A stretch of 7,368 nucleotides of DNA, taken from IMG/VR virus record IMGVR_UViG_2537561685_000009. One strand, 5' to 3'. Shown here in pieces: positions 1,072 through 6,986 of this stretch; the stretch's first letter is position 1, and every line of letters starts with the position of its first letter. The notes beneath the pieces were generated by a model, which was not told the DNA's origin, ran no database searches, and worked only from the letters and a program-made list of their open reading frames with translations. The DNA comes from a virus (Duplodnaviria > Heunggongvirae > Uroviricota > Caudoviricetes). The position numbers and the translations under genes are program-made.

Positions 1072-1799
1072 ATGCCTGTACCAAATCCTGTAATGCCGGT
1101 GAAAGGTGCCGGGACCACCCTGTGGGTTTATAAGGGAAGCGGTGACCCTTATGCGAATCCGCTTTCAGACGTTGACTGGTCGCGTCTGGCAAAAGTTAAA
1201 GACCTGACGCCCGGCGAACTGACCGCTGAGTCCTATGACGACAGCTATCTCGATGATGAAGATGCAGACTGGACTGCGACCGGGCAGGGGCAGAAATCTG
1301 CCGGAGATACCAGCTTCACGCTGGCGTGGATGCCCGGAGAGCAGGGGCAGCAGGCGCTGCTGGCGTGGTTTAATGAAGGCGATACCCGTGCCTATAAAAT
1401 CCGCTTCCCGAACGGCACGGTCGATGTGTTCCGGGCTGGGTCAGCAGTATCGGTAAGGCGGTGACGGCGAAGGAAGTGATCACCCGACGGTGAAGTCACC
1501 AAGTGGGCGTCCGTCATGGCAGAAGATCGCAGACGGTACGCGGCAACCGGATGACGTGACGCCTGCCAGCCTCGGTGGTGAAAGGGCAGAGCACCACGCT
1601 GACCGTGGCATTCCAGCCGGAGGGTGCAACTGACAAGAGCTTCCGTGCGGTGTCAGCGGATAAAACAAAAGCCACCGTGTCGGTCAGTGGTATGACCATC
1701 ACCGTGAATGGCGTTGCTGCAGGTAAGGTCAACATTCCGGTCGTATCCGGTAATGGTGAGTTTGCTGCGGTTGCAGAAATCACCGTCACCGCCAGTTAA
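1072..1799 (+). pseudogene. V: Major tail tube protein V, reading frame disrupted between about 1430 and 1575
   Basis: ATG 1072 ([31 protein letters not shown]...) is preceded by a GAGGA RBS. The N-terminal frame matches lambda gpV up to ...GTVDVFR, then ends at TGA 1462-1464. The continuation [17 protein letters not shown] is encoded in another frame (1434-1484), followed by short frame-hopping pieces (TVK, GRPS, MAEDR). The C-terminal Ig-like portion ([16 protein letters not shown]...AEITVTAS) is intact in the frame of ORF 1575..1799. The span 1072..1799 is 728 nt, not a multiple of 3. Confidence 0.8.
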
Positions 1800-2653: not shown

Positions 2654-5221
2654 ACCGGTAGGCGATCTGGTCGTTGATTTGAGTCTGGATGCGGCCAGAT
2701 TTGACGAGCAGATGGCCAGAGTCAGGCGTCATTTTTCCGATACGGAAAGTGATGCGAAAAAAACAGCGGCAGTCGTTGAACAGTCAATGAACCGGCAGGC
2801 GCTGGCTGCACAGAAAGCGGGAGTTTCCGTCGGGCAGTATAAAGCCGCCATGCGTATGCTGCCTGCACAGTTCACCGACGTGGCCACGCAGCTTGCAGGC
2901 GGGCAAAGTCCGTGGCTGATCCTGCTGCAACAGGGGGGTCAGGTTAAGGACTCCTTCGGCGGGATGATCCCCATGTTCAGGGGGCTTGCCGGTGCGATCA
3001 CCCTGCCGATGGTGGGGGCCACCTCGCTGGCGGTGGCGACCGGTGCGCTGGCGTATGCCTGGTATCAGGGCAACTCAACCCTGTCCGATTTCAACAAAAC
3101 GCTGGTCCTTTCCGGCAATCAGGCGGGACTGACGGCAGATCGTATGCTGGTCCTGTCCAGAGCCGGGCAGGCGGCAGGGCTGACGTTTAACCAGACCAGC
3201 GAGTCACTCAGCGCACTGGTTAAGGCGGGGGTAAGCGGTGAGGCTCAGATTGCGTCCATCAGCCAGAGTGTGGCGCGTTTCTCCTCTGCATCCGGCGTGG
3301 AGGTGGACAAGGTCGCTGAAGCCTTCGGGAAGCTGACCACGACCCGACGTCGGGCTGACGCGATGGCACGCAGTTCCATAACGTGACGGCGGAGCAGATT
3401 GCGTATGTTGCTCAGTTGCAGCGTTCCGGCGATGAAGCCGGGGCATTGCAGGCGGCGAACGAGGCCGCAACGAAAGGGTTTGATGACCAGACCCGCCGCC
3501 TGAAAGAGAACATGGGCACGCTGGAAACCTGGGCAGACAGGACAGCACGGGCATTCAAATCCATGTGGGATTCGGTGCTGGATATTGGTCGCCCGGACAC
3601 TGCCCAGGGAATGCTGGAGAAAGCAGAAAAGGCTTTTGATGAGGCGGACAAAAAATGGCAGTGGTATCAGAGCCGGAGCCACCGGCGCGGTAAAACCTCA
3701 GCATTTCGTGCCAATCTCCGGGGAGCATGGGAGGACAGAGCGAATGCGCAACTTGGACTTTCAGCCGCCACGTTGCAGGCCGATCTTGAAAAGGCCAGAG
3801 AGATGGCAGCAAAGGACTGGGCCGAGTCTGAGGCATCACGGCTGAAATATACCGAAGAGGCGCAGAAGGCTTACGAACGGCTGCAGACGCCGCTGGAGAA
3901 ATATACCGCCCGTCAGGAAGAACTGAACAAGGCACTGAAAGACGGGAGAATCCTGCAGGCAGATTACAACACGCTGATGGCGGCGGCGAAAAAGGATTAT
4001 GAAGCGACGCTGAAAAAGCCGAAACAGTCCGGCGTGAAAGTGTCTGCGGGCGATCGTCAGGAAGACAGTGCTCATGCTGCCCTGCTGACGCTTCAGGCAG
4101 AACTCCGGACGCTGGAGAAGCATGCCGGAGCGAATGAGAAAATCAGCCAGCAGCGCCGGGATTTGTGGAAGGCTGAAAATCAGTTCGCGGTACTGGAGGA
4201 GGCGGCACAACGTCGCCAGCTATCCGCACAGGAGAAATCCCTGCTGGCGCATAAAGATGAGACGCTGGAGTACAAACGCCAGCTGGCTGCACTTGGCGAC
4301 AAGGTTACGTATCAGGAGCGCCTGAACGCGCTGGCGCAGCAGGCGGATAAATTCGCACAGCAGCAACGGGCAAAACGGGCCGCCATTGATGCGAAAAGCC
4401 GGGGGCTGACTGACCGGCAGGCAGAACGGGAAGCCACGGAACAGCGCCTGAAGGAACAGTATGGCGATAATCCGCTGGCGCTGAATAACGTCATGTCAGA
4501 GCAGAAAAAGACCTGGGCGGCTGAAGACCAGCTTCGCGGGAACTGGATGGCAGGCCTGAAGTCCGGCTGGAGTGAGTGGGAAGAGAGCGCCACGGACAGT
4601 ATGTCGCAGGTTAAAAGTGCAGCCGCGCAGACCTTTGATGGTATTGCGCAGAATATGGCGGCGATGCTGACCGGCAGTGAGCAGAACTGGCGCAGCTTCA
4701 CCCGTTCCGTGCTGTCCATGATGACAGAAATTCTGCTTAAGCAGGCAATGGTGGGGATTGTCGGGAGTATCGGCAGCGCCATTGGCGGTGCTGTTGGTGG
4801 TGGAGCATCCGCGTCAGGCGGTACAGCCATTCAGGCCGCTGCGGCGAAATTCCATTTTGCAACCGGAGGATTTACGGGAACCGGCGGCAAATATGAGCCA
4901 GCGGGGATTGTTCACCGTGGTGAATTTGTCTTCACGAAGGAGGCAACCAGCCGGATTGGCGTCGGCAACCTGTACCGCCTGATGCGCGGCTATGCCACCG
5001 GCGGTTATGTCGGTACACCGGGCAGCATGGCAGACAGCCGGTCGCAGGCGTCCGGGACGTTTGAGCAGAATAACCATGTGGTGATTAACAACGACGGCAC
5101 GAACGGGCAGATAGGTCCGGCTGCTCTGAAGGCGGTGTATGACATGGCCCGCAAGGGTGCCCGTGATGAAATTCAGACACAGATGCGTGATGGTGGCCTG
5201 TTCTCCGGAGGTGGACGATGA
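2646..5221 (+). pseudogene. H: Tail tape measure protein H, frameshifted near 3341-3385 into a 246-aa N-terminal ORF and a 612-aa C-terminal ORF
   Basis: ATG 2646 overlaps the end of G-T (ATGGCTGA). The N-terminal ORF (MAEPVGDLVVDLSLDAARFDEQMARV...EAFGKLTT) runs to TGA 3384-3386. The continuation (SAEQIAYVAQLQRSGDEAGALQAANEAATKGF...) is in a different frame from 3383 and runs to TGA 5219-5221, with a long Ala/Gln/Glu-rich helical middle and a Gly-rich hydrophobic segment typical of tape measure proteins. DPTSG and MAR fragments are visible in alternating frames inside 3341-3373. Confidence 0.8.
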
Positions 5222-5547
5222 AGACCTTCCGCTGGAAAGTGAAACCCGGTATGGATGTGGCTTCGGTCCCTTCTGTAAGAAAGGTGCGCTTTGGTGATGG
5301 CTATTCCCAGCGAGCGCCTGCCGGGCTGAATGCCAACCTGAAAACGTACAGCGTGACGCTTTCTGTCCCCCGTGAGGAGGCCACGGTACTGGAGTCGTTT
5401 CTGGAAGAGCACGGGGGCTGGAAATCCTTTCTGTGGACGCCGCCTTATGAGTGGCGGCAGATAAAGGTGACCTGCGCAAAATGGTCGTCGCGGGTCAGTA
5501 TGCTGCGTGTTGAGTTCAGCGCAGAGTTTGAACAGGTGGTGAACTGA
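5218..5547 (+). CDS. M: Minor tail protein M (tail tip assembly)
   Basis: Intact 109-aa ORF (MKTFRWKVKPGMDVASVPSVRKVRFGDGYSQRAPAGLNANLKTYSVTLSVP...), lambda gpM-like. ATG 5218 overlaps the H stop (ATGA). Stop TGA 5545-5547 overlaps the L start (TGATG). Confidence 0.9.
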   Translation: MKTFRWKVKPGMDVASVPSVRKVRFGDGYSQRAPAGLNANLKTYSVTLSVPREEATVLESFLEEHGGWKSFLWTPPYEWRQIKVTCAKWSSRVSMLRVEFSAEFEQVVN

Positions 5548-6244
5548 TGCAGGATATCCGGCAGGAAACACTGAATGAATGCACCCGTGCGGAGCAGTCG
5601 GCCAGCGTGGTGCTCTGGGAAATCGACCTGACAGAGGTCGGTGGAGAACGTTATTTTTTCTGTAATGAGCAGAACGAAAAAGGTGAGCCGGTCACCTGGC
5701 AGGGGCGACAGTATCAGCCGTATCCCATTCAGGGGAGCGGTTTTGAACTGAATGGCAAAGGCACCAGTACGCGCCCCACGCTGACGGTTTCTAACCTGTA
5801 CGGCATGATCACCGGGATGGCGGAAGATCTGCAGAGTCTGGTCGGCGGAACGGTGGTCCGGCGTAAGGTTTACGCCCGCTTTCTGGATGCGGTGAACTTC
5901 GTCAACGGAAACAGCGAAGCCGATCCGGAGCAGGAGGTGATCAGCCGCTGGCGCATCGAGCAGTGCAGCGAACTGAGCGCGGTCAGTGCCTCTTTTGTAC
6001 TGTCCACGCCGACTGAAACGGATGGCGCTGTTTTTCCGGGACGTATCATGCTGGCCAACACCTGCACCTGGACCTATCGCGGTGATGAGTGCGGTTATAG
6101 CGGTCCGGCGTCGCGGATGAATATGACCAGCCGACGTCCGATATCACGAAGGATAAATGCAGCAAATGCCTGAGCGGCTGTAAGTTTCGCAATAACGTCG
6201 GCAACTTTGGCGGCTTCCTTTCCATTAACAAACTTTCGCAGTAA
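5547..6244 (+). pseudogene. L: Tail tip protein L, frameshifted near 6100 so the written ORF ends early at 6173
   Basis: ORF 5547..6173 (MQDIRQETLNECTRAEQSASVVLWEIDL...TWTYRGDECGYSGPA) matches lambda gpL and then diverges into SRMNMTSRRPISRRINAANA*. The expected C-terminus (DEYDQPTSDITKDKCSKCLSGCKFRNNVGNFGGFLSINKLSQ*) is encoded in the +1 frame from about 6103 to TAA 6242-6244. The span 5547..6244 is 698 nt, one short of a multiple of 3. Confidence 0.8.
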
Positions 6245-6248
6245 TCCC

Positions 6249-6986
6249 ATGACAGAGACAGAATCAGCGATTCTGGCGCACGCCCGGCGATGTGCGCCAG
6301 CGGAGTCGTGCGGCTTCGTGGTGAGAACGCCGGAGGAGGAAAGATATTTTCCCTGCGTGAATATCTCCGGTGAGCCGGAGGCGTATTTCCGGATGTCGCC
6401 GGAGGACTGGCTGCAGGCAGAATGCAGGGTGAGATTGTGGCGCTGGTCCACAGCCACCCCGGTGGTCTGCCCTGGCTGAGTGAGGCTGACCGGCGGCTGC
6501 AGGTGCAGAGTGATTTGCCGTGGTGGCTGGTCTGCCGGGGGCGATTCATAATTCCGCTGTGTGCCGCATCTCACCGGGCGGCGCTTTGAGCACGGGGTGA
6601 CGGACTGTTACACGCTGTTCCGGGAGCTTACATCTGGCGGGATTGAGATGCCGGATTTTCATCGCGGGGATGACTGGTGGCGTCACGGTCAGAATCTCTA
6701 TCTGGATAATCTGGAGGCCACAGGGTTTTACCGTGTCGCACTGACAGAGGCACAACCTGGCGATGTGCTGCTGTGCTGCTTTGGTTCATCGGTGCCGAAT
6801 CATGCCGCCATTTACTGCGGCGACGGTGAGCTGCTGCACCATATTCCTGAACAACTGAGTAAACGAGAGAGGTATACCGACAAATGGCAGCGACGCACAC
6901 ACTCCCTCTGGCGTCACCGGGAATGGCACGCATCTGCCTTTACGGGGATTTGCAACGATTTGGCCGCCGCATCGACCTTCGTGTGA
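6249..6986 (+). pseudogene. K: Tail tip assembly protein K (MPN/JAMM plus NlpC/P60-like), frameshifted at about 6421 and again at about 6540-6556
   Basis: ATG 6249 (MTETESAILAHARRCAPAESCGFVV...FRMSPEDWLQAE) is followed by a frame break. The conserved MQGEIVALVHSHPGGLPWLSEADRRLQVQSDLPWWLVCRG, which contains the JAMM-type HxH-x7-S-x2-D motif, is encoded in another frame from 6422. Frame 0 resumes at 6561 (PHLTGRRFEHGVTDCYTLF...NHAAIYCGDGELLHHIPEQLSKRERYTDKWQRRTHSLWRH...STFV*) to TGA 6984-6986. An alternative shorter start at ATG 6393 (MSPEDW) corresponds to the shorter lambda annotation as I recall it. Confidence 0.7.

Follow-up and report, generated by a model that had tools for sequence, protein, structure and literature searches.

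The window analysed here, a stretch of 7,368 nucleotides, carries a tail module of the lambda type, consisting of the 3' end of FII, the genes Z, U, V, G, T, H, M, L and K, and the 5' part of I; the K gene, its motif and the deletion sites of the window described below lie on the plus strand. The window is byte-identical to the entire GenBank WGS contig AQCA01000042.1 (7368 bp; assembly GCA_000359055.2), and its annotated proteins, ENH51257.1 and ENH51258.1 among them, are deposited under Escherichia coli p0305293.5. The database lists 3 samples for this contig, with the K and L fragment proteins found on one contig only, and this figure probably counts one assembly more than once, as versions or copies. 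No literature was found under the WGS accession AQCA00000000.

Gene K (6249..6986), which encodes the tail tip assembly protein with a JAB/MPN and an NlpC/P60 domain, is located between L and I in the order Z-U-V-G-T-H-M-L-K-I and, as deposited, bears six one-base deletions. From its start, the ATG at 6249, the gene reads to ...SPEDWLQAE up to about 6420, where the first deletion (6420..6422) removes one A that is present in every intact homologue, converting GAAATG to GAATG (the window letters at 6420-6424 are g-a-a-t-g); in the alignment, the gap may equally be assigned to the wobble base of the GAA codon. Beyond this point, the segment MQGEIVALVHSHPGGLPWLSEAD, which is encoded in the ORF 6422-6589, is translated in the next frame, and with it the JAMM motif HSHPGGLPWLSEAD (HxH-x7-S-x2-D; 6449..6490), which is, as an earlier reading of the sequence alone had recognized, out of frame with the K start. 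The second and third deletions (6541..6552) lie between 6541/6542, where the relatives have A or G, and between 6551/6552, where they have G or A. Each corresponds to an A/G difference between the tail modules of two lambdoid prophages that reside together in ETEC strain 120899, a relative, at 4750559-4757951 and 568358-577161 of NZ_CP025916.1. These modules served as our reference pair and are denoted here copy A (GGGGGACG...TAAGTT in this region) and copy B (GGGGGGCG...TAAATT). The original frame is regained at the 6551/6552 deletion. Alignment to intact homologues bears out the net loss of 3 nt that the sequence-only reading had deduced, and the two stops of the original frame that it had placed between the breaks are there, namely, TGA at 6477-6479 and TAA at 6549-6551. 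That reading located the three breaks at 6420, 6541 and 6551 correctly and overlooked three more losses (6625..6639), which follow positions 6625, 6630 and 6638 and fall on copy A/copy B SNPs (T/C, T/C and G/A, respectively), so that K carries six one-base deletions rather than three. The second trio is inside the NlpC/P60 domain, where it changes FRDAYHLAGIEM to FRELTSGGIEM, rewriting DAYHLA to ELTSG; it makes no stop and is frame-neutral overall.

With the six bases restored, K becomes a protein of 247 aa that matches the Pfam family Prok-JAB (PF14464; 54 bits with a cut-off of 25; residues 4-104) and the NLPC_P60 family (PF00877; 47.9 bits with a cut-off of 23; residues 111-224), and shares 94% identity with lambda gpK along 199 aa. 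Therefore, the gene identity and the domain assignment proposed from the letters alone, that is, a K of the lambda type in which a JAB/MPN domain precedes NlpC/P60, are correct, and the profile search of the repaired protein that had been suggested as a check recovered both domains above their cut-offs. Without the repair, two fragments cover Prok-JAB profile positions 4-58 and 66-102 separately, the latter being the 55-aa out-of-frame JAMM fragment, and the ORF 6561-6986 matches NLPC_P60 with 38.8 bits. The N-terminal frame of K includes, within APAESCGFVV, a candidate for the upstream glutamate that is catalytic in JAMM domains. A search of PDB sequences yielded only a weak match to a JAB domain (2kks_A, E = 4e-05). 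Lambda gpK is the tail tip assembly protein K, annotated as a C40 family peptidase. It shares with the K of the window the gene order M-L-K-I, the succession of Prok-JAB and NlpC/P60, and an identical JAMM motif, and, judged by sequence, the repaired protein is an ordinary member of the gpK family, with all the tested family features present. What sets the K of the deposited window apart from lambda gpK is the six one-base deletions.

The lambda reference itself calls for a comment, given that its K has 199 aa, against 247 aa in the window, other lambdoid prophages and re-sequenced lambda. Re-sequenced lambda (PV340536.1, KT232076.1), other lambdoid phages and the window all have a G that is missing from the reference (J02459 / NC_001416), where it would fall between coordinates 14266 and 14267 (866-868 of the extracted segment); owing to this gap, the annotated reference K comprises 199 aa and begins at Met49. 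PV340536.1 annotates K as 247 aa. The 48 residues that are absent from the reference K hold the beginning of the JAB domain, with the candidate JAMM glutamate among them. The shorter form of K is found in only four records, two of which are the reference itself, and the missing G probably reflects either a mistake in the 1982 reference or a difference between strains; a '+G at 14266' correction appears to be listed for commercial lambda DNA.

The deletions in K are part of a larger set. In a global alignment with the closest complete genome, that of ETEC TW10722, the window shows 76 substitutions, no insertions and 25 one-base deletions, which are clustered in V (13), H (4), L (1), the L stop codon (1) and K (6). 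The 13 deletions in the major tail gene V (1433..1570) include 12 at third codon positions; the 4 deletions in the tape-measure gene H (3340..3371), all on A/B SNP sites, split this gene into ORFs of 246 and 612 aa; and the one-base deletion in L (6109..6110), at an A/B SNP (T/G), cuts the product to 208 aa, compared to the intact 232 aa in both contigs from sibling isolates that are described below. The deletions in V and in H are spaced by multiples of three, and third codon positions hold 21 of the 25 deleted bases as first placed, with the AAA-run deletion in K also placeable there. The change at the L stop codon (6242..6244), where copy A has TAAA and the window TAA, is a case apart: because copy B of 120899 and both sibling contigs share this allele, it is a natural indel allele and no artefact.

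Copy A and copy B differ at 303 of the 6894 comparable sites (4.4%), and 23 of the 25 deletions in the window fall exactly on these differing sites (hypergeometric P about 7e-30). One of the two exceptions is the V deletion after window position 1569 (reference position 1581), which adjoins the matching site 1582. The other is the AAA-run deletion in K, where there is no difference between the two proxy copies. As such, this first K deletion counts against an artefact linked to paralogue differences, although its wobble site varies across the population, with A present in 85 of 121 K copies and G in the other 36; a three-base A/B difference (CAG vs AGT) is found a few bases upstream. The substitutions tell of a chimeric consensus: 73 of the 78 that separate the window from copy A are the copy B allele, and across the 242 informative sites, the window agrees with A at 149 and with B at 73, and has no base at 20, with 31 switches between the A and B haplotypes. 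The gaps tend to sit at or near these switches. In the related ETEC genomes, the window has 4-8 matching places per genome.

This distribution bears on the possibility of generic base-calling errors, such as homopolymer miscalls or faulty low-coverage read ends, arising without any repeat collapse. The first K deletion does lie in an AAA run, a few others touch short G runs, and the clustering of the deletions is what low-quality stretches would produce. However, most of the deleted bases lie outside homopolymers and track paralogue SNPs, on which grounds homopolymer-type sequencing error was rejected as a candidate, and random hits would account for neither the coincidence of 23 of 25 deletions with SNP sites nor the chimeric alleles. 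Moreover, the sequencing was by Illumina at more than 200x (PMC4462620), a platform that rarely gives indels. We consider such errors a highly improbable source of the breaks.

Assemblies of sibling isolates offer a further comparison. The truncated V protein of the window is also found on contigs APZI01000532.1, from E. coli p0305293.13, and AQBV01000050.1, from p0305293.12, two isolates obtained from the patient who yielded p0305293.5. The P0305293 isolates are ETEC from Bangladesh, obtained in 2011 in association with cholera-like illness (PMC4309559). The isolates of the large ETEC multi-isolate study with this naming scheme were sequenced on Illumina HiSeq2000 with 300-bp inserts, at more than 200x, and assembled with Celera Assembler; the populations were clonal in 10 of the 12 multi-isolate patients, the exceptions being P0299917 and P0299438 (PMC4462620). 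P0305293 is not named in the main text of that article (PMC4462620), and we infer from the isolate numbering and from its absence from the two named exceptions that it belongs among the clonal subjects.

The substitutions of the two sibling contigs relative to copy A are B alleles without exception (212/212 and 112/112). APZI01000532.1 has a base at all six of the K sites and follows haplotype B throughout K and, therefore, both alleles exist in the clone. Wherever the siblings cover the sites of the K, H and L deletions of the window, they read bases: the four H deletions are absent from both contigs, and both H (859 aa) and L are intact in AQBV01000050.1. The A/B mosaics and the sets of deletions differ among the window, APZI01000532.1 and AQBV01000050.1, and the only deletions common to all three assemblies are eleven of the 13 V sites, along with the natural indel at 6242. 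The siblings also have breaks of their own, with G of 45 + 64 aa, H of 602 + 242 aa and K of 204 aa in APZI01000532.1, and V split in AQBV01000050.1; the fragments resulting from the sibling breaks are deposited as proteins. The frame breaks of the sibling contigs are likewise considered artefactual.

The lesions of the window K appear to be without precedent in the sequences surveyed. The K deletions were found in 0 of 14,274 K copies from 5,426 complete E. coli genomes. The best match to K among the complete genomes is 301/307, and that to the V cluster is 201/214, with the gaps as the sole differences in both cases, six of them in K. A 30-mer spanning the 6420 deletion had no match in IMG/VR, the GTDB genome set or the JGI metagenomes, and a search of phage records for the same lesions found none.

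These comparisons weigh heavily against the view that the window represents real pseudogenization, that is, a decaying, defective lambdoid prophage in which frameshifts have gathered in V, H, L and K. Such decay would not be unusual in itself: E. coli often harbours defective prophages whose tail genes are broken, as exemplified by the J pseudogene in NT1F25 and the IS66-disrupted Z in strain 120899, and the window resembles cryptic lambdoid prophages with tail pseudogenes in that the frame-broken genes belong to a prophage tail module and that several of them are broken together. That eleven V deletions recur in each of the three sibling assemblies is also compatible with a real mutation common to them and, in this respect, argues against an artefact, but eleven single-base losses, all on paralogue SNPs, are not plausible as mutations. 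Furthermore, decay would have to produce deletions but no insertions, would have to leave gaps as the sole differences from complete genomes over stretches of 201 and 301 bases, and would have to hit paralogue SNP sites in 23 of 25 cases in a sequence with 31 haplotype flips, and the lesions in K, H and L have no counterpart in the clonal siblings or in any other genome. Real pseudogenes are expected to be reproducible across the assemblies of one clone and to include lesions beyond the paralogue SNP sites; the window displays neither property. With prophage decay rejected on the strength of the sibling comparison, we deem this scenario very unlikely.

The implication of the earlier reading, that tail tip protein K is genuinely disrupted, is not supported: the lesions are at paralogue-differing sites inside a chimeric consensus, are missing from the p0305293.13 contig and from all the K copies in complete E. 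coli genomes, and belong to a set of 25 such deletions that affects V, H, L and K of a draft contig built from short reads. The reading itself had named an uninterrupted K frame in the source as the observation that would overturn the claim, and such a frame is indicated, indirectly, by the haplotypes and by the sibling isolate. In contrast to the artefact, a tail gene is genuinely disrupted by the IS66-family insertion (ISCro1-like, with tnpA/tnpB/transposase) in gene Z of copy B (3488-6773 of the extracted NZ_CP025916.1 locus, strain 120899), which is also present in several related ETEC genomes, including that of H10407.

Another conceivable reading is that K is expressed through programmed recoding, with ribosomal frameshifts at the deletion sites. 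The same tail module does have a site of this kind, the heptamer GGGAAAG at 2213-2219, which we take to be the expected slippery site for the programmed -1 frameshift that yields the G-T tail assembly chaperone in lambda-like phages. This heptamer lies where G (1815-2237) overlaps T (2219-2653) and is a single match, a count that is not significant alone. Recoding of K, however, would require six shifts, there are no slippery heptamers at the respective sites, and the lesions are not conserved even among the sibling isolates. All homologues, including that of re-sequenced lambda, use a single frame, which led us to reject programmed frameshifting in K; the probability of this reading is vanishingly small.

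Taken together, the coincidence of the deletions with SNP sites, the chimeric alleles and the disagreement between the siblings point to an artefact, and we conclude with high confidence that the frame breaks in K are consensus errors stemming from a collapsed repeat, with no pseudogene involved. Under this explanation, the strain would carry at least two lambdoid prophages with tail modules (Z to I) that are about 96% identical, and the assembler would merge the reads of both copies into a single 7.4-kb contig, so that the consensus would alternate between the two haplotypes; at some of the columns where A and B differ, especially near haplotype switches, no base would be emitted, resulting in single-base deletions. 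The step at which the assembler would drop a base is suggested by the pattern of the gaps, and we know of no documentation of such behaviour of Celera Assembler at biallelic columns. The sibling contigs with the other allele make it likely that both copies are present in p0305293.5 itself. The deletions that break V, H and L would have the same cause as those in K. The window thus shares with collapsed-repeat errors in short-read drafts of multi-prophage E. coli a short contig whose sequence is multi-copy in the relatives, switching between two haplotypes, gaps at heterozygous columns, and an outcome that varies among the assemblies of clonal isolates.

There is also an extremely slim chance that the deletions are real and arose in vivo in p0305293.5, for example, through error-prone handling of mismatches in heteroduplexes as the resident tail modules underwent gene conversion with each other. 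If true, this would imply a mutational process that deletes bases specifically at paralogue mismatches and varies between sibling colonies.

The explanation by repeat collapse carries a caution, because the contig and its fragment proteins are public as if they were real: ENH51258.1, a 55-aa 'hypothetical protein', is the out-of-frame JAMM segment, and ENH51257.1 is the truncated L. When a short-read draft shows frame breaks in a prophage region that exists in multiple copies, read-level support is needed before pseudogenes are called. As for gpK, the results offer no hint of new biology; each copy of K in the real genome is most likely an intact 247-aa protein combining the JAB/MPN and NlpC/P60 domains.
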